DNA from: a virus
Lineage: Duplodnaviria; Caudoviricetes
Virus record (IMG/VR): IMGVR_UViG_3300032218_003260
Direction: 5' to 3' (one strand)
DNA length: 64,000 bases
Shown here: piece after piece, positions 1-64,000 of the stretch
Layout of the letters: the number at the start of each line of letters is the position of its first letter
How positions within the stretch are numbered: the stretch's first letter is position 1
Translations under genes and position numbers: made by a program
Notes under the pieces: model-generated
What the model saw: only the letters and a program-made list of their open reading frames with translations
What the model was told of the DNA's origin: nothing
The model's database searches: none

Positions 1-384
1 TTCGCCGATCACAGATACTTCGCGAACACCCTTAAACCACGCGGCGCAGAACACTTCGCCGATTGCCGCAAACAGCGCTAGCCTTACTGGATATCTAAAC
101 GCAAAGAAGTCGCGCCGGTTCAGCGCTTGTTCAAACGTGCGCACTGGGTCAGCGCCGTTCACAAAATCACGTTGCGCGGCAGCTAGAGCTTCCGCAATTT
201 TTACAATCTCGTCTTGCGAGATGTTGTGTTCTTCGTACCAAGCGAGCGCGTCACCAGTGCGCGCGGCGGAGTCAAGATTCTCAATTGCACGCACCATCAA
301 CGTCGGCGTGATGTACGCGTAGTCGCGCTCCGGGTTGTATAACGGGCCGCTGTCGCCTTTTTGGCGATAACCAATGCTGCTCAT
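1..384 (-). CDS. hypothetical protein, 3' end runs off the window
   Basis: ATG at 384 starts an uninterrupted frame MSSIGYRQKGDSGPLYNPERDY... to the window edge; same strand as the downstream-reading operon. Confidence 0.7.
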   Translation of the reverse strand, partial: MSSIGYRQKGDSGPLYNPERDYAYITPTLMVRAIENLDSAARTGDALAWYEEHNISQDEIVKIAEALAAAQRDFVNGADPVRTFEQALNRRDFFAFRYPVRLALFAAIGEVFCAAWFKGVREVSVIGE

Positions 385-394
385 AACGTCCTTT

Positions 395-1246
395 CTATGG
401 CGCAGATTCTATTTGCCGCGACGCCGCTTGTCGGCAGCGGATACACAGCAAACCAGAATCTTTTGGGTCAAAAAACGCGTCTGTTTGGCACGCCTCGCAA
501 TACCGGGTTACGTACGTGCGCTGATGGGTAGCAAACATGCACTGGTCTGCGCCCAGCCAGCAGTGCAAGCACGAATGCTCATAACCATCGGGACACGGTC
601 GAGCACGCGTACGCACCTCGATGAGCCCGCGGTTATCGCGCTGCATGCTGCTGCTGACGCTTACTTTCGAGAACGCAGGTTGTTCTCGACTCCGCTCCGC
701 TTCGACATGCGCAAAGAATAGCAAGTTTAAAAAGTGCATAGCCGTTGTATACGGATATGCGCCCCACGGCGCGGAAAAGCCGAGCGTTTGAGAAATCGCC
801 CGGCAACTGTTCTGCGAGAAAAACTGCGTAAACAACATAGCCGCCGGCGAACCGCCGACTGCGCGACATTCAAGTAAATACCCCGAGACTGTCTTGCGTT
901 TATACGGTCGTACGCCTTCGACACACACCGGTACAAGCTCGTCTTCCAGTTGCCGCGTCCACGGCAATACCGGAAGCCCAGCCTTAAGCGTTTCAATATT
1001 ACCGGCGAGTCGCCACGCCAACTCGTACGCGGCGCGCTTTGACAGTCGCGTGCCGGCTAACGCACGGACAGAATCAAACACCGCCGGCTGCGACACAGCA
1101 GATGGTAACTCGGCCAGCACGTCGCGGCAAATGTCGCGTAACGTCTCTCCGGCTACATTTGCGTCGATGTACGGCCGAAGAGCGCGCTCAGCGAGTTTGT
1201 CGCGACACTGGCGCAAGCGCACATAACTAAACTGAGGGCGTTTCAT
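395..1246 (-). CDS. hypothetical protein with C-terminal Cys clusters (possible Zn-binding)
   Basis: 283 aa ORF in tight operon; CLHC...C, CEAC and CIRC motifs near the C-terminus. Confidence 0.75.
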   Translation of the reverse strand: MKRPQFSYVRLRQCRDKLAERALRPYIDANVAGETLRDICRDVLAELPSAVSQPAVFDSVRALAGTRLSKRAAYELAWRLAGNIETLKAGLPVLPWTRQLEDELVPVCVEGVRPYKRKTVSGYLLECRAVGGSPAAMLFTQFFSQNSCRAISQTLGFSAPWGAYPYTTAMHFLNLLFFAHVEAERSREQPAFSKVSVSSSMQRDNRGLIEVRTRARPCPDGYEHSCLHCWLGADQCMFATHQRTYVTRYCEACQTDAFFDPKDSGLLCIRCRQAASRQIESAP

Positions 1247-1874
1247 CGGCGCCCCGCAATGTTACATCCGCAGGCGTTGTAAGCTGTTCCGGGGTTGCCG
1301 GTACAGTGCTGAGCCCGGCGCCGTCACCACGTACCACGACCTTGCGATCAGGGTTGTTGGCTTCCCACTGCTGCCGGGCTTTGGTGCAGGTCTCTTCGGC
1401 TGTCGTGGCGGTCTCTTTGACAGCCAGCGCTTCCTGCTCAAGCGACAAAATAATCGTCCCCAGCTCACTCGACAGTAAATTAGCGATATCGCCGACGCAC
1501 ACCACATGCTTGATATGCGCGACAACCGGCTCCAATTCTTTACCGTCTTTGACGGGCCGAAACGTAATCGCGATATCTTCGATCTTGATTGTCTCGGGAA
1601 TCGGGTCGCTCAATGTTTTGCCGTGGAGTTCCGCGCCGATCTGTCGTAACGCGTTAAACCGGGTGTACATCTCTTCCATCCGCGCAGCCGATTCCTTAAT
1701 CAACGTCGACGGGTTTATTTTAATAGTCTGCGGCTGGGAAGCAGCAGTCTGCAATGCCTTTGCCAGCGCTGACGCGTCCATCTTGATCGGCACTGTTACG
1801 TTAGTCGTGCCGCCGGTGCTGCAAGCGGCGCCCTTGGCTTCACTTACTGCGTCTACAATCGTCGTCTTTGCCAT
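1227..1874 (-). CDS. hypothetical protein, predicted coiled-coil
   Basis: Start placed at MAKTT (AAGGA upstream); helical Ala/Glu-rich segments. Confidence 0.7.
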   Translation of the reverse strand: MAKTTIVDAVSEAKGAACSTGGTTNVTVPIKMDASALAKALQTAASQPQTIKINPSTLIKESAARMEEMYTRFNALRQIGAELHGKTLSDPIPETIKIEDIAITFRPVKDGKELEPVVAHIKHVVCVGDIANLLSSELGTIILSLEQEALAVKETATTAEETCTKARQQWEANNPDRKVVVRGDGAGLSTVPATPEQLTTPADVTLRGADETPSV

Positions 1875-1884
1875 TGTTTCGTCC

Positions 1885-2289
1885 TTAAAGTGTTTTAACT
1901 GCAAACCCAAACCAGTAACGTAGTCCGCTGTTCAACCCGGTATCGGGATCATACAGCAACTCAACCGGATTTCCAGTGGCCACATAAAAGTGGTGAACTG
2001 GTCGCGGCAGGTAAGCTGCGCAAGATAACCCGATCTGCAACAGAAACGCCATAGCAAGATCTGCTGCCGGATTAAGATCGTACGAAAAAAGCGGAACTCG
2101 TAAATACTCGTCGTGCTCGGAAAAAGCCCATACAGGCTGTTCGCCCGGGTTGTAGGCGGCGTCCAGAATGTGCCACTTAGCGCCACCAACCTCGTCAATT
2201 GGTTTGATCAGGGCCGGCTCAAACGGAACGCCTTCCGGCCAGCGCTCTCGGGTCTTTTTCATATCTAAACGGGCTACAGAAACTTTCAT
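1885..2289 (-). CDS. hypothetical protein
   Basis: 134 aa ORF; start overlaps the stop of the upstream gene (translational coupling). Confidence 0.7.
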   Translation of the reverse strand: MKVSVARLDMKKTRERWPEGVPFEPALIKPIDEVGGAKWHILDAAYNPGEQPVWAFSEHDEYLRVPLFSYDLNPAADLAMAFLLQIGLSCAAYLPRPVHHFYVATGNPVELLYDPDTGLNSGLRYWFGFAVKTL

Positions 2290-2984
2290 GCCGTCATAGT
2301 CCTTGGTTCTGCAGTTTCTACGCCGGAATCGTTGACGTTGATTTTCACGCCCTCACGAAAATGACAAAAACGAATGTCTTGATGCTTGAATGCTGCGCCA
2401 AGAACGCGTTCGCCATACTTCTGTTGAAATCCTACCGGCGGAAAGTCGAACTGGTACAACAGCTCTGTTTTGATTGCCCACCATCCGCCAATTACATACG
2501 GCAGATAAGTCTTGTCGTACGCGGGATTGAACCACGGCTGCTGTTGCATCCACCGCAACTGCTCATCTGGGAGTTTCGCCCGTTCGACCGACCCGACGAG
2601 GTTGCACCCGTTTACGTTGGTTGTTACACGCGCAAACCAGTTGTGAATGTCATCTGCTGGCTCAAGATACGAATCGTGGTCAAACCACATCGTAATCGGT
2701 TCTGTGATCAGCGGCTCATAAAACATACGCCGCATCATCGGGTACTTCATCAGGTTTTTAGTGCTGTGAAAAATTGTTGCTGAGTGAAAATGATCAGCAA
2801 CCTGCTGGAGAAGAAATTGAGTCGTGTCTGGCCCTACGGCATTGCACCCAAAACGAAAAGAGACGTTTTGTGTAGCCAGTTCGCGCATCGGGCCGTTAAG
2901 CACGCGTTGCGCAAGTTGAAAGTGTTTGTTTTCTGCGCCGTAAAATAAGACGCAGATACAAACAGAAGCGGCTCCATCCGCCAT
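2286..2984 (-). CDS. putative GT-A fold (family 2-like) glycosyltransferase
   Basis: N-terminal hydrophobic strand CICVLFY, DxD-like motif MWFDHDSY, IGGWWAIKTELL segment and GERVLG acceptor-side motif. Confidence 0.5.
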   Translation of the reverse strand: MADGAASVCICVLFYGAENKHFQLAQRVLNGPMRELATQNVSFRFGCNAVGPDTTQFLLQQVADHFHSATIFHSTKNLMKYPMMRRMFYEPLITEPITMWFDHDSYLEPADDIHNWFARVTTNVNGCNLVGSVERAKLPDEQLRWMQQQPWFNPAYDKTYLPYVIGGWWAIKTELLYQFDFPPVGFQQKYGERVLGAAFKHQDIRFCHFREGVKINVNDSGVETAEPRTMTA

Positions 2985-3008
2985 ACACGACTCCGTTCAA
3001 CTAAAGAT

Positions 3009-3557
3009 TTATAGCCTCGCTGGCGCTAGCGCTGCCTTCGCTACCGCAACCGGCATGACAACCGGCGGCACGCGCGACCGACCAAGAAGCTTCAAAACCC
3101 GCATCACGTTTTGTGAATCAGGCTCGATATTTTTCTTGGCGTCTTTGACCATCTTATCGACCAGTTCAAGAAACGTCGTGCGTTCTTTCACCGACGCAAA
3201 ATTGAACCGCACCGAAAACTGAGTTACCGTTTTGCCTGCGTGCTCGTCTGCGACGTCGCACCTGTCCCACGCCGACTTATCGTCGCCGCGCGTGTAAACA
3301 CAGGCAATCCGACCCAGAAAGTCATAGACCACAATGACCGCCGATTTATCAACGTCGCCGACTAACGAGAAAGCGTGGGGAAATTGCGTTGCCGGAACAA
3401 ACGGCAACTTTTCCACAACCTGCTCGTTAAGTTCGAGGCGCTGGAGCTGCAGCGGAAATGTGCGATGACCGCGTTCATTATCTTTGATATAGAACTCGGC
3501 CTCCAGCGCACCAACGCCGGGCTCAATCACAATTGGAACATTACGTACAGAAAACAT
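3009..3557 (-). CDS. hypothetical protein
   Basis: 182 aa ORF, GGAGG-type RBS upstream. Confidence 0.75.
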   Translation of the reverse strand: MFSVRNVPIVIEPGVGALEAEFYIKDNERGHRTFPLQLQRLELNEQVVEKLPFVPATQFPHAFSLVGDVDKSAVIVVYDFLGRIACVYTRGDDKSAWDRCDVADEHAGKTVTQFSVRFNFASVKERTTFLELVDKMVKDAKKNIEPDSQNVMRVLKLLGRSRVPPVVMPVAVAKAALAPARL

Positions 3558-3565
3558 AAAACCTC

Positions 3566-4453
3566 CTAACGCGTCATATTGGACCGGCGACGCGGCGAGG
3601 CTTCCTGCTCTTCCGTATCGTCATCAACCTCTTCGCGCTTGTCCAGCTCCTCCCGAACCTTAGCGCACATCGCGCGGTGATCCGCCACGATGTCAGACAG
3701 CTTCTCAAAGTTTTCGATGATCTCGGTAAAGTAACCTTGAACAGTTGCATCGAACTTTGACGGTGCAGCATTTACAATGTCGTCGTAAATGTTGTCACGC
3801 TTTTCGCTCAACCAGAGCGAATCAGAACGAGAAATCCAGCGCCGCTGATGCTGCAGCAGATCGTGAAGCTGCTGCTTGAGCCCCTTGGGCGACTGATGCG
3901 TGCGACCGCTTGTCTTCTGCTTACCGCGCATCTCCTGCAGCTCAGTCGCCAGCGTGCGGGCCGTGTAAGCCTCCTCAGCGCACTTCTCCTCGACCGCAGC
4001 GCGCTGCTGGTCGTCGGGAATCTGCGTGAGAAGTTGCACGTGCGATGTCGTCAGCCGCCAGCGAGGGCGGTCAGGGCATCGTAGGCTGAGCAGCCGAATA
4101 ATCTCGGCTTCGCTCGGGTACTTCTCGAAGAAGCTCACGGCACCGCGCATCTGCTCCACGGTGTAAACAGGCGCAAAGATCGACATGAGCAGCGATGCTC
4201 CGTCAATGTGCTGCGCTTGCTGTTCCGGCGTCAGATAGCGTTCTGGATCTCCTTTTACCTCCGAAATAAGCTTCCCGATCCGCCAGTACGCGCGCAGGCT
4301 AGCTTCCTGTGCGTCACTGAACAGACCGTCGATTTCGGAAACGACGTCCTGCAACTCAGGCGTCAAATTCTCCGTTGCTACTAAGAGCGGCGAATTACGA
4401 GACTCGACCATGTCAGCCTGAATCATCGCCGCTGCCTTAGACTTCCTACCCAT
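3566..4453 (-). CDS. DUF1016/YhcG N-terminal-like domain protein without nuclease domain
   Basis: RAYWRIGKLISE, YTVEQMRGAVSFFEKYP and LTTSHVQLL...EEAYTARTL parallel the DUF1016_N pattern (LYWxIG, FSxRNL...FY..YP, LSWSHY..L...WSVREL). Confidence 0.55.
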   Translation of the reverse strand: MGRKSKAAAMIQADMVESRNSPLLVATENLTPELQDVVSEIDGLFSDAQEASLRAYWRIGKLISEVKGDPERYLTPEQQAQHIDGASLLMSIFAPVYTVEQMRGAVSFFEKYPSEAEIIRLLSLRCPDRPRWRLTTSHVQLLTQIPDDQQRAAVEEKCAEEAYTARTLATELQEMRGKQKTSGRTHQSPKGLKQQLHDLLQHQRRWISRSDSLWLSEKRDNIYDDIVNAAPSKFDATVQGYFTEIIENFEKLSDIVADHRAMCAKVREELDKREEVDDDTEEQEASPRRRSNMTR

Positions 4454-4480
4454 TGAATCTCTCCCTATAAGTGAGGTTAA

Positions 4481-5635
4481 CTATTTTCGCTTTCTGCTTT
4501 TCGGAGCAGGAAGCAGCAATTCAAGCGCGGTTGTTTGCAGTAGGTCGCGCAGGGTGTGGTAATGCCCGCGCGAGCACCGCAACACGGAACAAAACAAGTC
4601 GTAGGCTGTTCGCTGCCTAAGCACTTCTTTTGTGTAAACGTCAATAGCGTCGCGCGGCTCTATGTCCGCACCCACCATTGCCGTGTTTTTGATAATTTGT
4701 TTGGCGTCTTCTCGCGTGACCTTGAATTTCATCAGGTACGAAGTCCACTTATCGGTCGCGGCGTCCATGGTTGTCTTGTCTGGCGAAAATTCCAGCGACA
4801 AGCCCATGAGTGCTGAGACGCGATTTGCCACGGTGGTCATATCAATACTGCGCTCGGCCACGTTGGACGCCAGAATCGCTGTACGGCCAACAAGGTCGGC
4901 GCCGGTATGATTCAGCCGGCCACCTTTACCTGCTGGAGACAACGCTGCGCCAAACTTTGTGTACAAACACGTAGACGCCCGGATCGCGTTCCCCGTGTCT
5001 TCGCGGTTTGAGAAATACCAACCAGCCGCAAAAGTGTGCCGCGGATCGGTATAGATATCTGTACGCCGCGATTTGGGATCTATGAAATACAGCCGCAGCT
5101 CTCGCCCCAGAAGTTCCGCGCGAAAAAACTCGGCCTGCGGTTGTTTATCGTACAGTTCGTTGCTGACGGTTTCCATAAACAAACTGTTGTCAAGCATGCG
5201 GTGATCGAGGCCCAGAAAGCCTTCGACTGACCGCTCGCGGTGGTTCACCAGCAGAGTGCGCTCGCGCAACGCATCGAATCTAACACGTAGCGTCGTGTTG
5301 TAAATACTGACCGCCGCGGCAATGTCGTTTGCGCGAGTAGTCGTACGAACTTGCCGGACGTTCTCGCCCGACAGCTCGTTAAACAACTGCGCCAGCCCGA
5401 CAGACAAAACAGACGATAGCGCCCGGAAACCTATAGCGTTAAACCGGTAGCCGTTCTCGACAATGCTGCCATCGGGTCCCATGACCAACTGGGATTCCTC
5501 GACGACCGGGACCGACTCCGTGCTGGCGGAGCGCATCTCCAGAAACTTCCGGCACTCTTCTAGCTGGCTGGCCGAGAACGAGAACGCCGGCACGGGCGCA
5601 AATACGCTGCGCACAGTTGTAGTTGCCGACAACAT
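4481..5635 (-). CDS. DUF932-like protein
   Basis: 384 aa; order of motifs (LLV...EGFLG..HRMLDN..FME, AGWYFSNREDTG) resembles DUF932-type proteins; recognised by eye only. Confidence 0.4.
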   Translation of the reverse strand: MLSATTTVRSVFAPVPAFSFSASQLEECRKFLEMRSASTESVPVVEESQLVMGPDGSIVENGYRFNAIGFRALSSVLSVGLAQLFNELSGENVRQVRTTTRANDIAAAVSIYNTTLRVRFDALRERTLLVNHRERSVEGFLGLDHRMLDNSLFMETVSNELYDKQPQAEFFRAELLGRELRLYFIDPKSRRTDIYTDPRHTFAAGWYFSNREDTGNAIRASTCLYTKFGAALSPAGKGGRLNHTGADLVGRTAILASNVAERSIDMTTVANRVSALMGLSLEFSPDKTTMDAATDKWTSYLMKFKVTREDAKQIIKNTAMVGADIEPRDAIDVYTKEVLRQRTAYDLFCSVLRCSRGHYHTLRDLLQTTALELLLPAPKSRKRK

Positions 5636-5653
5636 CCGGGCCTCCGTGCCGAA

Positions 5654-6220
5654 CTAATCGTAATACCAGTCTGAGCCTATGGCGTTAAAAAGCGTTGCGG
5701 TGTGCTCAACTGTAAACATATTCTTGACGGTTGGCGGAAAGCTGCAGATCCACTGGACTCGGGGGATGCCGGTGTCGTCCGTTATATGGTTGTGGGCGCA
5801 CAGCATTGTCCGCACTACGGGAAAGCACATAATAAACCGGCGCTCTGTATTGATTTCCAGCTTGTGCAGGTTTTTAGCCACCGCGGCGAGTAATCTGTTT
5901 TTACCGTCTTTCGGGATTTTGAACAGATCAGCTATCGTCAGTTCGTGCAGTCTGGGAATGCGCCGACCGCATAAGACGCCGGGGAAGCGGTGAAACTCCG
6001 AGTTAAACCAACTAAAGTTCAATTTGTCGTGGCCGGTCATGTCGCGGCACTCGTTCGCCATCTTGCCCCAACCAGATATCTTAATGCCGCACTCTTTGAA
6101 GACGCGCTTAATAATGCGCTCCTCAAAAGCGAGCTGACGCTGAAACCGGATGGCTTCAGCGCCCTGACTGTCCTGATTAAACAGTTCGTTGAAGAACTGA
6201 TCGCGTGGATCTGCCATCAT
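5654..6220 (-). CDS. hypothetical protein
   Basis: 188 aa ORF coupled to neighbours. Confidence 0.7.
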   Translation of the reverse strand: MMADPRDQFFNELFNQDSQGAEAIRFQRQLAFEERIIKRVFKECGIKISGWGKMANECRDMTGHDKLNFSWFNSEFHRFPGVLCGRRIPRLHELTIADLFKIPKDGKNRLLAAVAKNLHKLEINTERRFIMCFPVVRTMLCAHNHITDDTGIPRVQWICSFPPTVKNMFTVEHTATLFNAIGSDWYYD

Positions 6221-6429
6221 CAGGGCGCCGTGTTGTTATCAAAATAGCTCGCAATAGACTCTGGCGGCGGGAGTGGCATCCACAGAAGCAACTCTGTCCG
6301 CGTTGCCAATTCCCCGCCAGTCACCATGAACTGGTCGTGAGTGACGGGGTCAGCGGCGAGTACTTTTTCGTCGCGCCCGGGAAGCCTGTCGTTTACGTGC
6401 GTCCATCTTCCGAACTTTGGTTCCTTCAT
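6220..6429 (-). CDS. DUF551-like small phage protein
   Basis: WTHVNDRLP...KVL and WMPLPPP motifs. Confidence 0.7.
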   Translation of the reverse strand: MKEPKFGRWTHVNDRLPGRDEKVLAADPVTHDQFMVTGGELATRTELLLWMPLPPPESIASYFDNNTAP

Positions 6430-6631
6430 GAAGCACCTTCTCTACGTCTTTGAGTAATCCTTCGGCGTTAATGATTTTGTCGCACGCCGATTCACCTGCT
6501 GGTATACATTGATGCGTTTCCAGCACATCTCGCACCACCCAAGCCAGCCAGTCTACTTCTTCTCGCGTAAACGAGATCGAGATGCTGACCGGCTTGACTT
6601 TAGCTGTCTTCTTCTTCGTCTTCTTCGTCAT
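6350..6631 (-). CDS. hypothetical protein
   Basis: Lys-rich N-terminus; overlaps both neighbours. Confidence 0.55.
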   Translation of the reverse strand: MTKKTKKKTAKVKPVSISISFTREEVDWLAWVVRDVLETHQCIPAGESACDKIINAEGLLKDVEKVLHEGTKVRKMDARKRQASRARRKSTRR

Positions 6632-6974
6632 ATTTGTCCGCATTGTGTTCTTCGTCGTAGTCGTCTACTGCTTCCATAAAGTCGTCAAAGCTCATGCCGG
6701 GCGCGTTTACACATTCCATAAACTGATACACAAACTTGCGCTCACCCGTCTCGTCGTCAGCACGCTCAACAAGACGATAGTGCATCATGTCGCCGGTTTC
6801 GTGGTCGTAACCGCTGATGATGGTGTCGGCTTCTGGAATAGGAACCGGCAGCTTTGCGCCGTCTACGGGGCCGCCAAAACACTCGGCCAATTGAAACAGT
6901 CCTTTTTGCATGCCCATAAGTTCATGCTCAATAACGCCGTCGTCTTCGTCTTCGTTTTCGTTTTCGTCATACAT
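6600..6974 (-). CDS. small acidic protein
   Basis: ATG overlaps the HNH gene stop; Asp/Glu-rich at both ends. Confidence 0.65.
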   Translation of the reverse strand: MYDENENEDEDDGVIEHELMGMQKGLFQLAECFGGPVDGAKLPVPIPEADTIISGYDHETGDMMHYRLVERADDETGERKFVYQFMECVNAPGMSFDDFMEAVDDYDEEHNADKYDEEDEEEDS

Positions 6975-7300
6975 TACTCTGCCTCCAACTCCTCGTAGAA
7001 GCGACGCCAGTGAGCCTGCATTTCCTGCGGATCGGGCCAAAAATCTTTATTTGCGTCCACATGCCGTGAACGATGACACGCCCGGCATAGTGCCTGCAAA
7101 TCTTCGGGGCGCTCGTTGCCTTCATTTTCATAGTGCAGGTGATGCTGCTCAAGGCGTTGGCCTATACCGCAAACACTGCCGCAGACTTCGCACCGGCCGG
7201 CCGCCCGTTTATGTACCGCCTGTTGTGTCAACAACGGTATAGCCGGCTTCGGGCGGCCGGCTGGTCTGTATTCTGTTATGACGGTTGACGCGTCACTCAT
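6974..7300 (-). CDS. HNH endonuclease family protein
   Basis: CEVC...HHLHY...LCRACH zinc-binding HNH signature. Confidence 0.85.
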   Translation of the reverse strand: MSDASTVITEYRPAGRPKPAIPLLTQQAVHKRAAGRCEVCGSVCGIGQRLEQHHLHYENEGNERPEDLQALCRACHRSRHVDANKDFWPDPQEMQAHWRRFYEELEAE

Positions 7301-7302
7301 AG

Positions 7303-8673
7303 TTAATCTACCTGTCCAAGGGGATCCAGATCCGCTCCGACAACTTCGCCGACCGTGCTTGACGCCGCCATAAGCTCAGGCACGTCGGTCATCTGATTAT
7401 TCTTTAACTCTTCCATCACCTGCTCGCGATATTTACGCGCCGGGTCGCAGATCGTGTAGTCGTTTACGCCGAGTAAGCCGTGCAGCATGCCGAGGACCTT
7501 GGGATTGTCTTCAAGCATGATGGACGCCTCAACTTCCGACACGGCGTCTTGCTTGGAAATACCGAGCGCCTTAGAAAAGACGAGCGGTGTTTCAGCGTTC
7601 TTGGTGCCATGCTTGTATTCCAGATCGCAGACTTGCTTAAGCAGCCCGGGCAGCTTGGGATCCATACCCGGAACCTGCTTACCGTCGCCCGCCTGCAGCT
7701 CCATGAGCAACCGGATGGACGCAGTGTGCCAATCCCAGAAATGGAATTGCTGATTCTTGTAAGTTTCGTTGCCGTTCTTATCGACGGCCGGCACGATCTC
7801 GTTGTACCAGAGCAGATTAACAACGATCTTGCGCCCCGGAGCGCCCAGATTGTTTTTAGTCGCTGCAATACGAATCGACGCACCCTCGTAGCGCGGCGGG
7901 ATGTTCTTCTGCGACGCCTTAGACATATCGAGGATCAGCGTCGGGTAGTAATCCAAACTGGCGCCGCCGGGAGCGTACTTCTTGGGCGGACCAAACCCCA
8001 TGGAGTTAATTTCCTCCTTAAGATGGTTTGTCGCAACGAGCGCAATCGGGTAATGCCGCAGAGTGGGCACCAGCGCCGTCCGCATGAAGTCAGACAGGTT
8101 GCGGGCGAGATACGGGTGCCCGGCCGCGGCGTGGCCCTCGTCGGCTACTTTCTCGACGCGCCGGTCGACCTCGACTGCCGAGATGGAGTCGATACCGATA
8201 CAGATAGGAATAACACGGTCCGGCGCGTTCGCTGCATCAACCTGCTTGTGAATCGCCTGACAGAACTCCATGTAGTGCTTCTGCCATTCTTCCACGCTCG
8301 CCGCCGTCTTGATGCGGGTCCGAGCGATGTACTGCTGGTTGTGACTGAATAGGCCCGACATCATGGTCGGCGATCCCTTGTTCTCGGTGTCGATCATGAT
8401 GGCGCCGCCGCCGTACATGTGGAACCAGCGCATAATCTCGATGAGAAGCGCGGACTTACCAGCGCTGAACTCGCCGCGAAGCTGCGTGAAGCGCGACAGC
8501 GGGAAAATGTTAGCCTGCAGCAGATAGCGCGCTGCCAGCGTAGGAAGCGGCAAGCCGATCAGCGGATCTTGGTCTTCCGCCGTCGCCTTGAGCACTTCCG
8601 TGATAACCGGATGCTCGCCATTGCGGGCGAACACATCAACTTCGTCGTGATCTTCTTTACGTTTCCTGCCCAT
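7303..8673 (-). CDS. recA: RecA/UvsX-like recombinase
   Basis: Walker A GEFSAGKS, IDTE, Walker B IGIDSISA, TNHL, PGGASLDYY, KNNLGAP; start at MGRKRK. Confidence 0.9.
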   Translation of the reverse strand: MGRKRKEDHDEVDVFARNGEHPVITEVLKATAEDQDPLIGLPLPTLAARYLLQANIFPLSRFTQLRGEFSAGKSALLIEIMRWFHMYGGGAIMIDTENKGSPTMMSGLFSHNQQYIARTRIKTAASVEEWQKHYMEFCQAIHKQVDAANAPDRVIPICIGIDSISAVEVDRRVEKVADEGHAAAGHPYLARNLSDFMRTALVPTLRHYPIALVATNHLKEEINSMGFGPPKKYAPGGASLDYYPTLILDMSKASQKNIPPRYEGASIRIAATKNNLGAPGRKIVVNLLWYNEIVPAVDKNGNETYKNQQFHFWDWHTASIRLLMELQAGDGKQVPGMDPKLPGLLKQVCDLEYKHGTKNAETPLVFSKALGISKQDAVSEVEASIMLEDNPKVLGMLHGLLGVNDYTICDPARKYREQVMEELKNNQMTDVPELMAASSTVGEVVGADLDPLGQVD

Positions 8674-8757
8674 AAATTCCCTTCTGATATGAAAAGCCGC
8701 AGCTCCGGCACGCACGCACCCAGAGAACAACGTGGTGCCGGAGCTGAAGCGAAAAGA

Positions 8758-10128
8758 TTACTTCTGCGCTGCGCGAGCACGAGCCCGGGCCAGAATGTCA
8801 GCAGAGTCGCGCTTCGCGGGTCCAGCCTGCGCCATCGACGGCGGGGCAGGAGGCGCGGGCGGAGCCGAAGCAAAGATATCAGCAACGCTGGCATCTACCT
8901 CCGGCGAAACTTCAGCCTCCGGCTGCTGGTCCCACGGAGCCACAGGATCGGGCTGTGGGGCCGGGCGGCGGGCAGAGGCTGCTGCACGTGGAGCTGGCGC
9001 CGGCGGGGCTTCCAGCTCCTCTACAGGCGTCTCTACGCCCTGAAACGTCGACGTGCCCTTCGGCAGTGCCCGAAGGTACTGCGGGAAGTCACGCCAAGCG
9101 AAATCAAGCGCTTCGCGAGGGAACACAGGAGCCAGCATTTCAGCCTGCTCCTCATACGACGGCAGGCGCAGAAAGTCTTCCCACGTGCCGGCTTCCGCAA
9201 CGATGCGATCGGCATACGGCTCCAACGAAATCTCCTGACCGTTAAACGTGTCATGGAGAATGCCGAAATGCGTGTAATCACTTCGCGAGTGCGGGTAACC
9301 AACGATGTACTGAGCGCCCTGCGGCCCGCGAGCGAACTTTGGGCACTGGAACGTCGTCGGACCCTCGATGCCGGTTGCGATCAGATTGGCGGCGCCACTC
9401 TTGAACGCTTCCGGCAAAATCGTAAACAACTTCGCCGGTCCGAGTGACAGCATATCGTTGATTAAAAACTCGCCGGTGCTTTCGTCGCGAACGTTGAGCG
9501 CCGAATGCAAAGCTTCAGCCGCGCTGGTCTTCAAACCGATGATGCGCGCATTGCGCTTGTTATCATCTGAAAACGCGCCCAGCTGAATCTTACCGTGTTC
9601 GTCAACGTAAACGGCGGTCGCCGAAATAAACATTGTCTTCTCGGGCTTTTTGAGCGACCCGATGTGCGAGTTTCGCACAAACTCCTTCGACAGCAACTCG
9701 GTGAACAACCGGCCCAGCGTCGGGTGCGGATTGTCCTTGGAACTGTCGTAGGCGACCTTGCGCAGAACGTGCAGCGGACTTTCGTACAGATTCACTTCGG
9801 GGTTGCCGTCGTGAACGATGAAGCAGATGCCCGGGTTACCTACCCAGTGCGCGCAGGTCAGCAACCGACTCCAATCGCCCATAGCAACGTTGTCGTGCCC
9901 CTCGCGGAAGCTGGCAAACGTTTCGCCATTTTTGCCCTCCTCGTAGATGGGGAGCAGCCGAAGGCAGAGGCCGTTTCCGAGGAGTTCACCGCCCGCTGCA
10001 ATCAGAATGTTGTTCTGTTTGCCGTAGGCGTAACGACTCTTACTGTTAGAGCCGCCAGTACCGATGTTGTTGGCCTTGCGGTACTCAGGATCAATCGCTG
10101 CAAAATTAGCCGCGTTATAGCGTGGCAT
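8758..10128 (-). CDS. putative gp32-like single-stranded DNA-binding protein
   Basis: LRLLP strand near the N-terminus, Pro/Ala/acidic linker and terminal ADILARAR tail typical of gp32-like SSBs; lies between polymerase and RecA. Confidence 0.6.
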   Translation of the reverse strand: MPRYNAANFAAIDPEYRKANNIGTGGSNSKSRYAYGKQNNILIAAGGELLGNGLCLRLLPIYEEGKNGETFASFREGHDNVAMGDWSRLLTCAHWVGNPGICFIVHDGNPEVNLYESPLHVLRKVAYDSSKDNPHPTLGRLFTELLSKEFVRNSHIGSLKKPEKTMFISATAVYVDEHGKIQLGAFSDDNKRNARIIGLKTSAAEALHSALNVRDESTGEFLINDMLSLGPAKLFTILPEAFKSGAANLIATGIEGPTTFQCPKFARGPQGAQYIVGYPHSRSDYTHFGILHDTFNGQEISLEPYADRIVAEAGTWEDFLRLPSYEEQAEMLAPVFPREALDFAWRDFPQYLRALPKGTSTFQGVETPVEELEAPPAPAPRAAASARRPAPQPDPVAPWDQQPEAEVSPEVDASVADIFASAPPAPPAPPSMAQAGPAKRDSADILARARARAAQK

Positions 10129-54756: not shown

Positions 54757-54829
54757 AGCCGGCGGTCGGATTCGAACCGACGACAGGCAGTTTACAAAAC
54801 TGCTACTCTACCAACTGAGTTACGCCGGC
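54757..54829 (-). tRNA. tRNA-Thr(TGT); CCA not encoded
   Basis: GCCGGCG/CGCCGGC acceptor, ACTC/GAGT D stem, GCAGT-TTTGTAA-ACTGC, GTCGG-TTCGAAT-CCGAC. Confidence 0.95.
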
Positions 54830-54834: not shown

Positions 54835-55302
54835 TTAAACAGGTTCAGTGATTAAACCAGTTGGCCAGTAGTATGGCATGTCGATCGGCTCCTGCCAACC
54901 AAACCGCGAGTAGTAGCGGAAATCTTTGCGGAGAAGATTGCTGCGATGACTGGCGTGAAATTGCTCGTCGCCAACCCACGGCGGGTACACGTTGCGCTCA
55001 ATGGTGTTGCGCAGTGTTGTATAGCTGCCCATGAACTGCGGGCAGAGCGTGTCATTAAATCCGCGGCGTATCCACTCGCGGCACACGACTATGGCATACA
55101 CTGCTAGCGCTGTTTCATATCCCGCCCACATACGGACGGCAGGATGATTGCGCCAGCTACTTGTTCCGGGCTCATGTTCGCCTACCGGAACGCCAAGACA
55201 GAGTAAGATCTGTTTACATTCAACCCTTTGTTTGCCCAGCCTTTTGTTATCGAGGCAGGCGGCCGAGTGTTTAAATCTCGGCAGGGGTAAGAATGTCTGC
55301 AT
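54835..55302 (-). CDS. pyrimidine dimer DNA glycosylase-like (DenV/MSMEG_6728 family)
   Basis: MQTFLP....SA..LD.KRLGKQRVE..QI...HPAV.MW.GY...H.SHRSNLLRKD. Confidence 0.85.
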   Translation of the reverse strand: MQTFLPLPRFKHSAACLDNKRLGKQRVECKQILLCLGVPVGEHEPGTSSWRNHPAVRMWAGYETALAVYAIVVCREWIRRGFNDTLCPQFMGSYTTLRNTIERNVYPPWVGDEQFHASHRSNLLRKDFRYYSRFGWQEPIDMPYYWPTGLITEPV

Positions 55303-55306: not shown

Positions 55307-55627
55307 TCAATTGTCAACTTCGTCGTCAAAATCTTCTTCGTATTCAGGGTCATTGTCTTCTTCGTCCTCGTACTCTTCGTCCCAGTCCTCGTCCTCATCT
55401 GCGTCAACCCATTCTTCTTCGTCATCTTCTTCTTCGTCGTCGTCGATAAATACGTAGTTCGGTTTGGGTAACTCAATGTCGCTGTTATCGTCTTCGTCGT
55501 CTTCGTCTTCGTTGTCATCGACAAACTGCCACTCTTCTTCAATGAAATCACCATCGAGGCCGTCGTCGTGACGGGTGGCGCGTTCGTTTGGAATGTCGCG
55601 AAACAATGGAGATTTAAAGTAGCGCAT
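55307..55627 (-). CDS. extremely acidic small protein
   Basis: C-terminal about 80 aa dominated by Asp/Glu with interspersed aromatics. Confidence 0.65.
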   Translation of the reverse strand: MRYFKSPLFRDIPNERATRHDDGLDGDFIEEEWQFVDDNEDEDDEDDNSDIELPKPNYVFIDDDEEEDDEEEWVDADEDEDWDEEYEDEEDNDPEYEEDFDDEVDN

Positions 55628-55629: not shown

Positions 55630-58263
55630 TTATCCAGTTTCCCGGGCAAGGTCAGCTGCAGGTAACAAGTATTGATCGCACCAACTGCTGTCAACAAGAA
55701 TGCCCGGCAGGTTGCGCACAGCTTCCTCTCCGCCGAAAACTCCGCGACGCGTCAATAGTTTAACAAGCCAAAGCCAGTTTGGGGCTAGCGCTTTTCTATC
55801 ATAAAAATAGCGATTGACGGCGCGCTGATTCAACCACCAATGTGTTTTTTTACGCACAATGTAGTTATTGGGTTGGCCGACTTTTCGCGCCCGGGGCAGA
55901 ACCGCGAGCGCGCCGGTTTGAATGGCATTTGTTAACTCCGCAAAAAACGACAAATCGGCCTCGTTTTGCGTGGTTAATTGTTTGCGCGCATAGTCGAGCT
56001 GGAACGCGCTGCCGTACGTTTCTTGCAGCCAGTCGTGTAGGTCGGCAAGTACGGCCAAGGCAGTTACCGAGTCCGTTAGGCTAATCCGCATTCGTTGACG
56101 CATTGCACGCTGAATGTAGCCCGGCAAGATATACGCCAGCGGGGTAAAGTCGGTTTTAGGGTCTGCGTAGCCGTTGATAGTCTGCCAACCGTACATCGGC
56201 GCGATGGCTGCGGCGGTGGGAGCCAAATGCAAAAGTACGGGGCGGTTATGACAACGCGGGATCGTCAGGCTCAGACTGGTCGCGTCGAACACGCTAGCAA
56301 CAGTTGTTGGCCACGCCAACTCTGCCGTGCGTGAGTACACCGCAGAACTGGCGGATGCGCGGTGCAGGATATCAATACGCTGGTGCGGGCAGCCAAGGAC
56401 TGGCGCAATTTGTTGTACCACGACAAAACTATCGCCGGTAAAACCAGTAGCAACTGGATCACGGCGCAGTATTGGGTCCACGAGATTGGCAATGACGGCG
56501 GCCGCAACGGTCCAGACAAAAGCATTTTCTTGACTGGGCGTTAAAAACTGCCGTATCGCCGGCGGGGCGACTGCAACAGGCTCTGGGAATACAGCGTGTT
56601 TGTTTTTTTCACTCGATTGATTTGGCGGTGACGGTGTGCCGTCTGCGGCTAGTTCGTAGTTTGCAAAACGAAACACGCTTGCGCGCTCGTCCCATCCTAG
56701 CCTGTTTGATACGCATACCAACTCTGGTTTGCTCAGGCCGATGGCCAGCAGGTGGCTTCTGCTATTCCACCGACTGTCGTACAGCATCACTTTTTTGTGG
56801 GACGCAACGACACTAGCCGCGAAGGCCAGCAGCCCGGCGCGTTCAATCTTGAAAGCGTTATCGGCAAAGTTAATTTCTTCGCCGTTGAGGTAGATCGTAC
56901 CGGCATATGTTTTTTCGCCGTCGTCGGCTTGAGTGATTTTATTGATAACAATGTTGGCGTCACAAATGTGCTGATTTGTGACGCTCCACCAACCGTCTGC
57001 TTTTGGAATGACAGTATGGCGCCACGGCTGTGATGTCGTCGGGGTAATGTGCTTAGAAGTCTTGACATGCGTCAATACCCGATCTGAAAAACCGGGAGAA
57101 AAATTACTGCCAATTTTGTTCAAAAACGGCACTAACTTGTCTGGCGGTATCGTAAGTCGCGTCGCAAACGAATGCGCCGCAATTTCATTTATCTGCCCCA
57201 GCGTGCTGCTCAGCCGGCTTTGCCATGTTTCTGCGTTGCTGCGAATCGAAACTAGCCGCGTCATGGCGTCTGTGGCGAGCCTATTTTTTACTCGTTGATT
57301 TTGCGTTACTATTGCCACGTAGCCGCGGGCATTAGCGACCCTGCTAATTAGTTCCGGCGAAATAATGTGGCTCTGGAAGATTCGCGGCACTGGCGCAAAT
57401 GAACACCAGCTGCCGCCCCAGCTGTTTGCCTCGACGCCGGTGTAGCTCGCCATTACCGGCAGCAGCGACAACCCGTGGCGTAGCATTTCACACTGCATAC
57501 TCAACGCCCACATCGGATCGTCTACTACAAACTGTGTGCTTTTTAGCGGCGCGACAGCGGGAAGAAGCGCCGCGCGCAGTAGAAAGTAACCAGCTTCTGG
57601 TCGGCTGCGTTTGTACTGGTTGAGCGAGATAAAGTTTTGTTTGGCCGTAAATTGCTCGTCGTACTGCACAATTAAGACGCCGGTTATACGCCCGGGCAGA
57701 TCGTAATACGGAAACACAAGGCTTGCGCCGTTTTCTCGTATGGGGCTAATCAGCGGCCGGCGCACGAATCGCTGGAGCGTATCTATTTGTTCTTTGTACG
57801 CCACGCCGACCAATCCGGCCGCATCTATTTCTTGATGTACGCCCAACTCGCGTAGGCGGCAGGCAATAACATCGTCGTGGTGGCCCCAGATTTGCGCTTC
57901 GGCGTCAAACCAAAACTGCTCAAATTTTTCAAAGCGTTCAATAGCTCGGGCGTATTCGGCGACGGCATTGTCTTTTTCAGCTGGGTTTATGGCGTTTAAC
58001 TCGATAAAACGGCTAATTGCCACATCGGGGCTTGTATTCCATAATGCCGCGCCAAACGTTATGATATCTCCATGGGCTGAGCACGAATTACAGTGTAGCC
58101 AGATACCGTTAGTGCTTGTGTCGTCGAATAGGTGTAGCGTATTTTTTTGACATAGCGGACAACTGACGACCGCCGGGAAAACCAACTGGTCCGGCGCAAT
58201 GCCCAGCGCCGACAGGGCAATCGCGTGGTGTTGGCGGCCAATTAAACAGGTAGGAAATCCCAT
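55630..58263 (-). CDS. large primase-like protein: Zn finger, degenerate TOPRIM, DUF927-like C-terminal region
   Basis: CPLC...WLHCNSC.AHGDII, FPYYDLPGRITG, FVVDDPMWAL in place of VVEG..D; no intact Walker A recognised. Confidence 0.55.
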   Translation of the reverse strand: MGFPTCLIGRQHHAIALSALGIAPDQLVFPAVVSCPLCQKNTLHLFDDTSTNGIWLHCNSCSAHGDIITFGAALWNTSPDVAISRFIELNAINPAEKDNAVAEYARAIERFEKFEQFWFDAEAQIWGHHDDVIACRLRELGVHQEIDAAGLVGVAYKEQIDTLQRFVRRPLISPIRENGASLVFPYYDLPGRITGVLIVQYDEQFTAKQNFISLNQYKRSRPEAGYFLLRAALLPAVAPLKSTQFVVDDPMWALSMQCEMLRHGLSLLPVMASYTGVEANSWGGSWCSFAPVPRIFQSHIISPELISRVANARGYVAIVTQNQRVKNRLATDAMTRLVSIRSNAETWQSRLSSTLGQINEIAAHSFATRLTIPPDKLVPFLNKIGSNFSPGFSDRVLTHVKTSKHITPTTSQPWRHTVIPKADGWWSVTNQHICDANIVINKITQADDGEKTYAGTIYLNGEEINFADNAFKIERAGLLAFAASVVASHKKVMLYDSRWNSRSHLLAIGLSKPELVCVSNRLGWDERASVFRFANYELAADGTPSPPNQSSEKNKHAVFPEPVAVAPPAIRQFLTPSQENAFVWTVAAAVIANLVDPILRRDPVATGFTGDSFVVVQQIAPVLGCPHQRIDILHRASASSAVYSRTAELAWPTTVASVFDATSLSLTIPRCHNRPVLLHLAPTAAAIAPMYGWQTINGYADPKTDFTPLAYILPGYIQRAMRQRMRISLTDSVTALAVLADLHDWLQETYGSAFQLDYARKQLTTQNEADLSFFAELTNAIQTGALAVLPRARKVGQPNNYIVRKKTHWWLNQRAVNRYFYDRKALAPNWLWLVKLLTRRGVFGGEEAVRNLPGILVDSSWCDQYLLPAADLARETG

Positions 58264-59437
58264 GACAAATATCCCGCTCGATCAAGCGCATGACGTCAGC
58301 GGCCGCGAGACACACAGGCTGACGACTCTGTACCCGCAACCTGACTTTGTAAAAAATGCCGCGGATGAAAAATTAAGCGGCGCTGCGGATTTACCTCGTC
58401 ATCTGTACGCTGATCAGCGCCATAAACTTTATCCGTGCCATACAGCCCCTGCAACATGGATGTCCGCGCTTTTCTTTGCTGACAAGCAAGCGCAGTTTGA
58501 CGCCAAAGAGGCCGCGGCTATTCAATCTAGGATACACCAAACTGCCGAATATTTCGGTATTCGCGGGGCTGTGGCGGAACTGGAAGAAAAGATTGCGGCC
58601 AGCGCTACACAGGATATTAACAGCCTACCGGACTCTGAATTTGCTATCGTCTGGGTCAGCGATGTGGGCGGCAAGGAGCGCCACTGGCCGCTGCGCAACG
58701 CCGGGGAGGTCAAATTTGCCGCCGCGCACTTTAAAACGTTCCGCGACAACTTCGTCTTCGAAGACCGCCACGTAATTGCCACAAAGATCCTCGAAAAGGC
58801 CGCGCAGTACAGCGCAGACGTTTCGGGGGCAGAGGGCTCGCTAGAGCTAGCGGCGGGGCTTGGCGCCTGCGCGGCTAAGGTAGCGAGCGACATGATCAAA
58901 GACCGCGTACGGCTTACCAGTCGGCAGCACACGCAGCTGGCGAGTGAGTTGTCAAAGTTAGCAGAAGCGGTTGACCAGAACCCCGAGAGGGCGCGTACGG
59001 TCGACATGCGGCTAAAGTTGGCGAGCGCGGTCGATAATTTCGATAGGAGCACGCAGCTCTATCGACTCTACGACGCCGGCGGATTACCGCGGCCGGAAGA
59101 GGTCTTGTTTGCGATCACCGAAAAGGTGGCGCGGGACTTCATGGCGCAGAACGTCGAAACCACTACGGGCAACGTATACGCTCTCGACGACCTTGAGAAG
59201 CTAGCCGTTGACGATGTACGCGAGTGGCTTGGCGACGACTTTGCTGACGCGGTAAGCGCCGGCGGCGTGTACATGGACCGCAGCAAGCTGGCAGCGATTG
59301 TTCCCACGCTCGACCGCGGTATGGCAACTATGCTGGACCGGCTCATGTCCGACAAGAGCGCCAGCGCTGTCGTGAAGTCAGCGTCAGCGGACAATCTGCT
59401 TTCGCTTGAGCGCCTTCGCGAGCTTGCGAGGGGCTGA
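58262..59437 (+). CDS. DUF6582-like domain protein
   Basis: LPDSEFAI...RHWPLRNAGEVKFAAAHF resembles LPDSxF...RxYP...V..A...F; an earlier copy-like segment YAD...KLYPCHT. Confidence 0.55.
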   Translation: MTNIPLDQAHDVSGRETHRLTTLYPQPDFVKNAADEKLSGAADLPRHLYADQRHKLYPCHTAPATWMSALFFADKQAQFDAKEAAAIQSRIHQTAEYFGIRGAVAELEEKIAASATQDINSLPDSEFAIVWVSDVGGKERHWPLRNAGEVKFAAAHFKTFRDNFVFEDRHVIATKILEKAAQYSADVSGAEGSLELAAGLGACAAKVASDMIKDRVRLTSRQHTQLASELSKLAEAVDQNPERARTVDMRLKLASAVDNFDRSTQLYRLYDAGGLPRPEEVLFAITEKVARDFMAQNVETTTGNVYALDDLEKLAVDDVREWLGDDFADAVSAGGVYMDRSKLAAIVPTLDRGMATMLDRLMSDKSASAVVKSASADNLLSLERLRELARG

Positions 59438-59869: not shown

Positions 59870-60108
59870 TTTGATATCAAGTCCTTCAGTTTGCGAAATA
59901 GTTGCCGCACGGCTGGCATAAGCTGCCGCTTTCTTGACGGCTCAGCGCCCGGCTCAACGTTCTGAGAAGATAAGCCGCCAGACTGCTCTTCTAACTCGCT
60001 TCGGCAGTAGTCGAGGTAGAGTTGCCAGTTGTCATAGGCGTCTCTATCTTCTGCTCGTTCGTAGGGGATGTAGGGGGGCTCGTCGATGAGTCTGTCGTTC
60101 CAGCCCAT
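59866..60108 (-). CDS. hypothetical protein
   Basis: 80 aa. Confidence 0.6.
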   Translation of the reverse strand: MGWNDRLIDEPPYIPYERAEDRDAYDNWQLYLDYCRSELEEQSGGLSSQNVEPGAEPSRKRQLMPAVRQLFRKLKDLISK

Positions 60109-60281
60109 TTCTTTTTGTCCTTCTGTTTGCTCCCGTCAACTAACTCGCCGCGCACGATCGATGTCGTTTGCGGCGCGGTAAGACCAATTTTGACGCGGTC
60201 GCCTGTGATGCTTAAAACTTTCACAACAATCCCGTCGCCAATTACGACTTCCTGTTCTTTCTTCCTTGAGAGTACCAGCAT
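59991..60281 (-). CDS. csrA: CsrA/RsmA family translational regulator
   Basis: MLVLSRK.EQEVVIGDGIVVKVLSITGDRVKIGLTAP..TSIVRGEL. Confidence 0.9.
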   Translation of the reverse strand: MLVLSRKKEQEVVIGDGIVVKVLSITGDRVKIGLTAPQTTSIVRGELVDGSKQKDKKKWAGTTDSSTSPPTSPTNEQKIETPMTTGNSTSTTAEAS

Positions 60282-63006: not shown

Positions 63007-63186
63007 GCGTTAACTCCGTTGTAACGCGGTAGAGAAGAGCCGCTAATACGATATAGCAGCGACAATAAATATGCCGCGATTTTGGCAAAAATTTAGCTGC
63101 CGTTCGGAATTCGCGAATTGCAAAAGTGCCTGTCAGTACAGGACTTACGACGCGGTATAGCGTGTTCTGGAAAATGGAAAATGCAA

Positions 63187-63266
63187 CCGCCGCCCCGCGC
63201 TGCCTAAGAGCGTGAAGCCCGTGGGTTACGTGGCACGTAACCCGTCAGCAGACCGCAGGGCGGCGG
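63187..63266 (-). ncRNA. candidate structured RNA (three-way junction)
   Basis: 13-bp outer stem, 5-bp second stem, 9-bp and 4-bp inner hairpins; all non-Watson-Crick pairs are G-U on the minus strand. Confidence 0.45.
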
Positions 63267-63296
63267 AAGATCGCAACCTACACATGGCAGGTGCGG

Positions 63297-63599
63297 CTAG
63301 AAGGTCAACTGGACTACTTGCCCGCCAGCGTTGACGTAAACAACGCGGATCTTTTTAGTATCCAGCAGAGATTTGAGTTGCGTCTTTTTTTCGCTGCTAA
63401 GGCCGGCAAGACACGATTTAATTTGCGCCATAGCGCTTCGCCGTTTTTCTTGGCGTTTATGTGCGCAAGCGCCGCAACCGCTATTGTTTGTCCGAAACAA
63501 TTCGAGCTTGTTGTAAAAACATGGAATTGATTCAGAGTACGTTGGGTCGCTCAGTAAAGATATTATTGTGTTGTCTTCAAGCACTACTAGATCGCGCAT
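63297..63599 (-). CDS. small Cys-containing hypothetical protein
   Basis: CGAC motif; 100 aa from MRDLVV. Confidence 0.7.
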   Translation of the reverse strand: MRDLVVLEDNTIISLLSDPTYSESIPCFYNKLELFRTNNSGCGACAHKRQEKRRSAMAQIKSCLAGLSSEKKTQLKSLLDTKKIRVVYVNAGGQVVQLTF

Positions 63600-63606
63600 A
63601 GTACTC

Positions 63607-64000
63607 TCACGGCGCTGGAGGTGGTGGCGGACCAATCCATGTTTCTCCGCCCGGCAATAGATTGTCAGCCACGTCGAGCGTGTTTTTAAGTCGCTGTACG
63701 TCTTCCGCTACGTCTTCGATAAATGCTTTGACTTCTGCCCGCGAGCGCAGAAGCACGTCAACGTAGTTCAGTCGAAACCACGCCGGGCGGTAATTTGGGA
63801 GCGGGTCGTCTTCTGGGTATTCTTCCAGATCCGTGGGCGAGCATACGTGGTCAAAAGCTCCGACCCGCTCTTCTGCGCCCGGTTTGAGTGGTAGCAGCTG
63901 ATAAGCGAATATTTTTGTCGGCATATTTACGGCGTCGCTGGCGGTAATGCGCACGCGAATGCCGTCTGTGGTTTCGTAGTTATATCGGCTGACCTGCCAC
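63607..64000 (-). CDS. hypothetical protein, 5' end outside the window
   Basis: Frame open from the window edge (WQVSRYNYETTDGIRVRIT...) to the stop at 63607. Confidence 0.65.
   Translation of the reverse strand, partial: WQVSRYNYETTDGIRVRITASDAVNMPTKIFAYQLLPLKPGAEERVGAFDHVCSPTDLEEYPEDDPLPNYRPAWFRLNYVDVLLRSRAEVKAFIEDVAEDVQRLKNTLDVADNLLPGGETWIGPPPPPAP

Follow-up and report, generated by a model that had tools for sequence, protein, structure and literature searches.

Among isolated phages, the nearest large terminase subunits (TerL) to the one described here are those of Salmonella phage Arash (OQ632216.1), an "orphan" myovirus of 180.8 kb (PMC10585845), and of Vibrio phages D69, D181 and D148 (~187 kb), all at 28-31% identity by tblastn. 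Freshwater phages of Planctomycetes have been predicted from metagenomes, and the main texts of the surveys concerned give them in lists only (Kavagutti 2019, PMC6802176; Okazaki 2019, bioRxiv 10.1101/655167; Jaffe 2022, PMC9040852); near-exact tRNA matches are used for host assignment in such studies, beside host genes and spacers of clustered regularly interspaced short palindromic repeats (CRISPR) (for example, PMC6802176). Here we analysed 64,000 nucleotides (nt) of the Caudoviricetes record IMGVR_UViG_3300032218_003260, a stretch called the window throughout, for which an earlier reading (the original prediction) had proposed a large phage with a probable Planctomycetota host.

The window is a segment of a virion-forming jumbo phage of ~200 kb. 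Its host is likely a member of the Planctomycetota, probably of the freshwater Planctomycetia, which is the best-supported reading of two signals: a tRNA-Gln gene nearly identical to those of lake metagenome-assembled genomes (MAGs), a link absent from the original prediction, and a gene module whose best cellular relatives are mostly planctomycete. Taken as a whole, the explanation that we consider fairly likely is an uncultured lake jumbo phage of ~200 kb with a freshwater Planctomycetia host and two gene exchanges with Planctomycetota. One exchange would be a recent capture of the host tRNA-Gln gene; the other, which would be older, may have involved a module of up to seven genes and integrative elements in planctomycete chromosomes.

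The phage clade and its genomes

Statements about genome size, capsid and circularity are drawn from relatives of the window, which itself amounts to about one-third of such a genome. The terminase gene named in the original prediction is present, and its product also aligned by tblastn with annotated large terminases:

50717-52648 (+): large terminase subunit TerL, GpA type (PF05876 GpA_ATPase, E = 3.5e-13)

TerL relatives in IMG/VR comprised 78 loci at 50-98% identity, many of them on contigs of 193-205 kb (CheckV completeness 95-100%), along which the position of the terminase varied widely, and four IMG/VR genomes were collinear with window positions 1-20000 (the 20 kb tested) at 83-90% nt identity. 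One close relative, IMGVR_UViG_3300042305_001773 (hereafter G406; 205,044 bp, 88-90% nt identity to the window), has contig ends that share a 128-nt overlap, and a homologue of the Arash major capsid protein crosses the end junction (42% identity over 116 amino acids (aa) and 26% over 235 aa). Because the capsid gene is split across this overlap, the map of G406 is circular or its genome is terminally redundant or permuted; the IMG/VR end class of the record is linear. G406 also encodes homologues of the Arash proteins gp13, gp14, gp218, gp222 and gp236, for which GenBank gives a structural annotation, and of its sigma factor, RNA polymerase beta-type subunit and helicase. The large phage of the original prediction is thus borne out by the 193-205 kb relatives, TerL and the capsid homologue, and the circularity or terminal redundancy that it had proposed looking for is seen in this close relative.

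Within the window no capsid or tail gene was recognized, and the Pfam models T4 Gp23 and Peptidase_S77 matched nothing in four relatives; they matched none of the control genomes either, so this second result is uninformative. The virion genes lie outside the window, which holds TerL and CsrA, the genes for replication and recombination, three tRNAs and many small genes of early or accessory type. The lifestyle is apparently virulent, as judged only from the fact that no integrase was seen in the window. Sequence comparison places the clade as a large one of freshwater lakes, only distantly related to Arash and to Vibrio phages D69, D181 and D148.

The tRNA-Gln gene and the gene module

The closest link to a cellular lineage comes from one of the tRNA genes of the window:

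25074-25144 (-): tRNA-Gln(UUG) (ARAGORN and Rfam)

When compared by blast with five lake MAGs, this gene was 97% identical to copies in G003 (Planctomycetaceae Jr-14may18-66) and G005 (a Lake Fargette Planctomycetia MAG), and 94% identical to that in G001 (Pirellulales EUL_332). Over 70 nt, the tRNA-Gln of the phage relative G406 and that of G003 are 100% identical, and their tRNA core is shared by the copy in G005. From L187:3478-3548 and L322:10029-10099 (phage relative, planctomycete MAG) the window copy differs by a single compensatory G-C to A-T pair in the anticodon stem; in the G001 copy it is the acceptor stem that has compensatory changes. The MAG contigs that bear these tRNAs have no other similarity to 735 kb of clade sequence by blastn or tblastx, and they encode CobW, a radical SAM enzyme, a polyprenyl synthetase, a prenyltransferase, squalene-hopene-cyclase domains and DUF1214/DUF1254. 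Expansion of DUF1501 is taken as a planctomycete hallmark, and in each of G001, G003 and G005 there are 16-26 very strong matches to this family, distributed across many contigs.

At a threshold of E ≤ 1e-10, the tRNA-Gln gene matched 38 of the 126 sampled Planctomycetota genomes (80-94% identity), 1 of 126 Pseudomonadota (87% over 54 nt) and 1 of 121 genomes in the phylum of the MAG WB9_2_064, this last match being a binned fragment of a related phage (97%); the best match in 50,697 phage records was 85.7% identical. Across the Planctomycetota, identity declines in steps (97-100%, 94%, 91%, 85-90%), as expected of a lineage's own tRNA. The MAG "bacterium WB9_2_064" (a GTDB species representative; L006, L324) contains at least two related-phage fragments, of 14 kb and 5 kb. 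Two different S12 genes mark it as a mixed bin; DUF1501 is absent from it, and "[bacterium]" is the sole organism name on its proteins. The bins that contain other cluster members yielded no additional organism names.

The second signal is the cluster of DUF3150, AAA, DUF2997 and DUF1257 genes, the sole gene argument of the original prediction that proved to carry real weight. A scan of GTDB with an alignment of the AAA family (one genome per species, 185,579 species) gave 319 relatives, and the locus counts that follow refer to the best 80 of these, with NCBI labels. Planctomycetota is the label of 70 of the 80 loci (chiefly Pirellulales and Planctomycetales, plus a small number of Isosphaerales, Phycisphaerales and Brocadiales-labelled bins), among them the complete chromosome of Anatilimnocola sp. 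NA78 and chromosomes or contigs of 7-8 Mb. Six genomes are unlabelled, and one of them has at least 100 DUF1501 genes and is planctomycete-like; the single Alphaproteobacteria-labelled locus is on the same contig as the majority of the DUF1501 genes in its genome. All window proteins were compared with the AAA loci by tblastn, and the lines below give, where found, identity to planctomycete copies and the number of loci with a match:

39452-39826 (-): DUF6915 (Pfam); 69-72% identity, 28 loci
40330-40914 (-): DUF6878 (Pfam); 26-29% identity, 18 loci
42078-42347 (-): 89-aa partner, start of the core shared module (42078-47042); 52-56% identity, 47 loci
42349-43350 (-): beta-solenoid protein, core shared module
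43347-44294 (-): DUF3150-like protein, 315 aa, without Pfam match, with look-alike clusters in the ESM Atlas; 46-47% identity, 52 loci
44295-44909 (-): 204-aa protein, core shared module
44959-46443 (-): Ycf46-like AAA+ ATPase (Pfam AAA, 1.7e-27)
46483-46674 (-): DUF2997 (Pfam, 1e-14); 54-63% identity, 66 loci
46677-47042 (-): DUF1257, weak (Pfam, E = 0.004); 57-60% identity, 64 loci

The planctomycete AAA copies are 52-60% identical to that of the window, with neighbouring genes retained; the beta-solenoid and 204-aa proteins had matches only in phage relatives. At the nucleotide level the AAA gene is 68-72% identical, over 640-900 nt, to five planctomycete genomes. Many relatives of the AAA+ protein lie on phage-sized contigs (60-98% identity), and the next ones, of ~518 aa and 55-57% identity, include as their only organism-named members Pirellulales and Planctomycetia MAGs; among the best matches listed, AAA proteins of isolated phages are 27-32% identical, and those of plasmids reach at most 39%. 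The guanine-cytosine (GC) content of the phage AAA gene is 61%, against 54% for the window and 57-67% for planctomycete homologues, which looks like a compositional trace of origin. As to the families named in the original prediction, AAA and DUF2997 (and CsrA, below) were confirmed, DUF1257 was recovered weakly and DUF3150 had no Pfam match; the 315-aa protein adjoins ESM Atlas clusters in which 18-29% of members bear DUF3150, so that this label is backed at a remote level. The tRNA-Gln gene (at 25 kb) and the module (39-47 kb) are unlinked, ~15-20 kb apart, yet indicate the same MAGs, since some of the nearest AAA copies are likewise found in G001, G003 and G005.

Several planctomycete genomes contain two to five copies of the module. 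In Planctomycetaceae HK-STAS-PLAN-18, a 12.7-kb repeat occurs twice on the same 3.8-Mb contig at 98% identity (L039:2948-15655 and L041:2951-15655) and carries an 803-aa large serine recombinase, DUF1257, DUF2997, AAA+, a DUF3150-like protein, the small partner and a ThiF-family protein. Because the module is multi-copy and the repeat includes a serine recombinase, the cellular copies appear to belong to integrative elements; we know of no description of a small multi-copy integrative element like this repeat. In a FastTree phylogeny of the AAA family, one branch with local support of 99 separates 18 window-side rows (the window, phage-contig relatives and several metagenome proteins of unchecked context) from 83 rows that include every planctomycete chromosomal locus. 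Because the phage sequences do not nest among the cellular ones in this tree, a recent transfer of the module, considered as a candidate, was rejected.

Weighing the host assignment

Several observations weigh against a planctomycete host. The phage has 54-55% GC, compared with 66-67% for the tRNA-bearing contigs and a median of 60% for the module loci; the resulting gap of 10-12 points to the putative host contigs is large for a phage-host pair. All host genomes linked by the tRNA are MAGs, in which contigs may be mis-binned, and the tRNA controls cover only two other phyla and one class. The clean separation of the phage AAA clade from the cellular one implies that the module exchange is old. 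Finally, a complete relative of 202,923 bp (L001, JBBATN010000003.1) is a contig of GCA_040398725.1, a RefSeq MAG with the label Sphingorhabdus sp. The proteins of this contig bear the Sphingorhabdus name (for example, WP_353208432.1), and its AAA protein is 80% identical to that of the window.

CRISPR spacers, proposed in the original prediction as a check, gave no match in the sample of Planctomycetota on which the check was run. By blastn, window positions 1-20000 had only chance-level or low-complexity matches, and no spacer, in 401 Planctomycetota genomes; the whole window had no spacer match in 5-6 lake MAGs; and 120 Cas1 neighbourhoods, with 93 arrays and ~2,000 repeat copies and spacers, gave a best match of 19 nt to 735 kb of clade sequence. 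Two candidate spacer matches were rejected: window positions 55320-55446 are acidic low-complexity coding sequence, and positions 63063-63101 (34-37 nt at 86-88%) lie over a promoter-like motif. With this small sample of the phylum, the absence of a spacer match is uninformative and does not speak against a planctomycete host.

Other genes of the window added smaller host signals. CsrA, offered in the original prediction as a planctomycete pointer, is weakly consistent with that role: it matched 57 of 151 Planctomycetota genomes (up to 55% identity, best 47 bits, up to 13 matches per genome), against 24 of 151 in a class labelled Alphaproteobacteria, where the best score was 35 bits. The planctomycete genomes G075, G100, G142, G008, G048 and G123 each have 8-13 separate CsrA matches, an unusually large number of paralogues. 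The best tRNA-Thr match in Planctomycetota was 86% identical (84 bits), with 12 of 121 genomes at E ≤ 1e-10, compared with 3, 7 and 8 of 121 genomes in three other groups; tRNA-Met had no match at E ≤ 0.001 in five planctomycete genomes. The small secreted Cys-rich protein and the acidic protein, called helix-turn-helix (HTH) in the original prediction, are present. The former gave no planctomycete signal, its ESM Atlas look-alikes scoring no higher than 0.85 and thus yielding no reliable relative, and the latter matched only phage relatives among the AAA loci. The proposed DHS-like domain at 26700-27917 found no support from Pfam, the Protein Data Bank (PDB) or named homologues, and no planctomycete signal: homologues of this protein are phage relatives and distant proteins of ~323 aa, the only named cellular relative being from Chloroflexota.

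The label of the 202,923-bp contig raises the question of whether the same phage might infect an alphaproteobacterium such as Sphingorhabdus, its planctomycete-like genes reflecting old or indirect transfers. A full-length relative with an 80% identical AAA protein does lie in GCA_040398725.1, and Sphingorhabdus genomes have ~55% GC, close to the 54% of the phage. Composition and coverage, on which the binning of a 200-kb contig depends, are nonetheless weak evidence, and similar GC could itself cause placement in the wrong bin, so that the label is probably a composition-driven binning error. Gene comparisons argue against such a host as well: tRNA-Thr reached no more than 79% identity across 121 genomes from the class labelled Alphaproteobacteria, the best tRNA-Gln in the 126 Pseudomonadota was the 87% match over 54 nt, CsrA matches in that class were fewer and weaker, and the 1 of the 80 best module loci that bears the label shares its contig with most of that genome's DUF1501 genes. 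We therefore regard a Sphingorhabdus-like host as very improbable. A host in some other or unsampled phylum is unlikely, if less easily dismissed; the tRNA and module links would in that case stem from contaminated MAGs, promiscuous tRNAs or horizontal gene transfer that does not track the current host. Consistent with it are the range of the tRNA controls (Pseudomonadota, one Alphaproteobacteria-labelled class and one unnamed phylum only), the MAG origin of all planctomycete tRNA genomes, the GC gap, the lack of a spacer match in the sampled genomes and arrays, and an AAA tree without recent transfer. Against it, three independent MAGs, from different studies to judge by their record titles, carry the near-identical tRNA-Gln on contigs with cellular genes, tRNA-Gln identity declines gradually across the Planctomycetota, and the two unlinked signals converge on G001, G003 and G005.

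That the window might derive from a plasmid, a chromosome segment or another element without virions is scarcely credible. Such a reading draws on the lack of a recognized capsid or tail gene within the window and on the Pfam T4 capsid and prohead protease models, which matched nothing in four relatives (nor in any control genome). It is countered by TerL in the window, by the Arash capsid and structural protein homologues in the complete relative G406, by CheckV, which rates the relatives as 95-100% complete viral genomes, and by a uniform genome size of 193-205 kb across many samples. The absence of capsid genes, which the original prediction had named as grounds for abandoning a phage interpretation, does not extend to this close relative. 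A jumbo phage of freshwater Planctomycetia thus remains the reading that we prefer.

Remaining gene content and comparison with known systems

tRNAs were sought with ARAGORN and Rfam, and ~100 open reading frames (ORFs) were scanned against Pfam. A greedy set of 94 ORFs occupies 95% of the window, and ~80 of these are on the minus strand; counted as genes, ~90 are minus-strand and 2-3 plus-strand, in agreement with the near-uniform strand described in the original prediction; well-supported plus-strand genes are TerL and 58199-59437, and 50394-50657 (+) is a possible third. The features not listed above are:

7303-8730 (-): RecA-like recombinase (PF00154, E = 3.6e-7)
10206-13373 (-): family A DNA polymerase (PolA) with N-terminal uracil-DNA-glycosylase-family domain and 3'-5' exonuclease (PF00476, 2e-47; PF03167, 2.6e-14; PF01612, 1.7e-5)
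13380-14465 (-): DnaG-like primase, weak (PF08275, 1.4e-5, just below the Pfam cut-off)
14462-16171 (-): DnaB-like helicase, weak (PF03796, 2.1e-5, just below the Pfam cut-off)
16849-18495 (-): superfamily 2 helicase (ResIII/Helicase_C; PF04851, 4.7e-8)
19813-21966 (-): SbcC-like ATPase (PF02463, 2.7e-18)
21908-23095 (-): SbcD-like nuclease (PF00149, 1.2e-4)
24034-24109 (-): tRNA-Met(CAU) (ARAGORN; Rfam, 53 bits)
24427-25074 (-): T5orf172/MUG113 (GIY-YIG-like) protein (PF13455, 4.5e-14)
26700-27917 (-): 405-aa protein, called HTH and DHS-like in the original prediction, without Pfam or PDB match
37584-39047 (-): DUF6745 (Pfam)
39016-39471 (-): DUF3085 (Pfam)
41601-41933 (-): small secreted Cys-rich protein, 110 aa, 9 Cys, signal-like N-terminus
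47740-48696: acidic protein (HTH in the original prediction), isoelectric point 4.6
48700-49062 (-): protein with dATP/dGTP diphosphohydrolase N-terminal domain (PF18909, 3.5e-16)
54269-54745 (-): GNAT acetyltransferase (Pfam)
54757-54829 (-): tRNA-Thr(UGU) (ARAGORN and Rfam)
54835-55302 (-): DenV-like pyrimidine-dimer glycosylase (Pfam)
58199-59437 (+): conserved gene, 412 aa; 92% aa and 87% nt identity to G406, no stops
59991-60281 (-): CsrA homologue with C-terminal extension, 96 aa (PF02599, 9.4e-20)

The replication and recombination set claimed in the original prediction is present; to call it full goes too far, as no single-stranded-DNA-binding protein, ligase, clamp or topoisomerase was recognized by Pfam among the ~100 ORFs. 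In the polymerase, a domain of the uracil-DNA-glycosylase superfamily is fused N-terminally to the family A polymerase in a single 1055-aa protein (10206-13373, -). The three tRNAs (Met, Gln and Thr) were found by both ARAGORN and Rfam, and the Pfam scans of the ~100 ORFs revealed no housekeeping family, as would be expected from the stated absence of host housekeeping operons. No match to adenylosuccinate synthetase (PurZ type) was seen in the window, and hence no evidence there for modified DNA bases. Pfam also recovered a MazG and a SEC-C motif protein and matched nothing for most window ORFs; PHROGs, searched with ten large unknown proteins, returned one family of unknown function and one weak match. 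Families of unknown function (DUF6745, DUF3085, DUF6915 and DUF6878) form a block at 37584-41278 (-). Next to it, the ORF at 36938-37957 (-) is kept in G406 for only its last ~211 codons (93% identity), and its upstream part overlaps the DUF6745 gene and contains a stop in G406; the true gene probably extends over ~36938-37573 (-).

Planctomycetota are abundant in lakes and have an unusual cell biology. Phrase searches found no published description of an isolated Planctomycetota phage, and none was found of this clade or its host. Its link to named lake Planctomycetia MAGs offers a concrete target for phage isolation and an example of a captured tRNA that identifies a host where spacers fail, and the analysis points to a 203-kb phage contig that was probably mis-binned into a RefSeq Sphingorhabdus MAG. 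Metagenomic surveys already list predicted planctomycete phages (PMC6802176, PMC9040852, bioRxiv 10.1101/655167), and the clade adds to this known kind. We suggest only tentatively, as a possibility we hold at less than even, that this widespread clade is the first host-linked Planctomycetia jumbo lineage and that the module, with DUF6915 and DUF6878, is a discrete system traded with serine-recombinase integrative elements. The module may have a role in host take-over or in conflicts between mobile elements.

Compared with described systems, the clade resembles Arash in genome size and in carrying tRNA genes, and G406 has the major capsid protein, structural proteins, sigma factor, RNA polymerase beta-type subunit and helicase in common with it; these core proteins are homologous at only 21-42% identity, too distant for assignment to the same family. 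Arash and Vibrio phages D69, D181 and D148 infect Gammaproteobacteria, unlike the putative planctomycete host of the clade. Of the module, only AAA was searched in the phage collection, where the best matches listed were 27-32% identical and did not include Arash or the Vibrio phages. With the predicted planctomycete phages, as the survey main texts list them, the clade shares habitat and the in silico manner of host assignment (host genes, tRNA and spacers). The AAA-ATPases of mycobacteriophages, Rhizobium phages and plasmids are homologous to that of the module and occur on many mobile elements, at 27-39% identity, and known Ycf46-like AAA+ proteins with DUF1257 (Ycf35-like) and DUF2997 neighbours belong to the same Pfam families (PF00004, PF06868 and PF11211). 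The closest counterparts are the IMG/VR genomes of the clade itself (for example, IMGVR_UViG_3300042305_001773), with a 98% identical TerL, the same module and the same tRNA-Gln.

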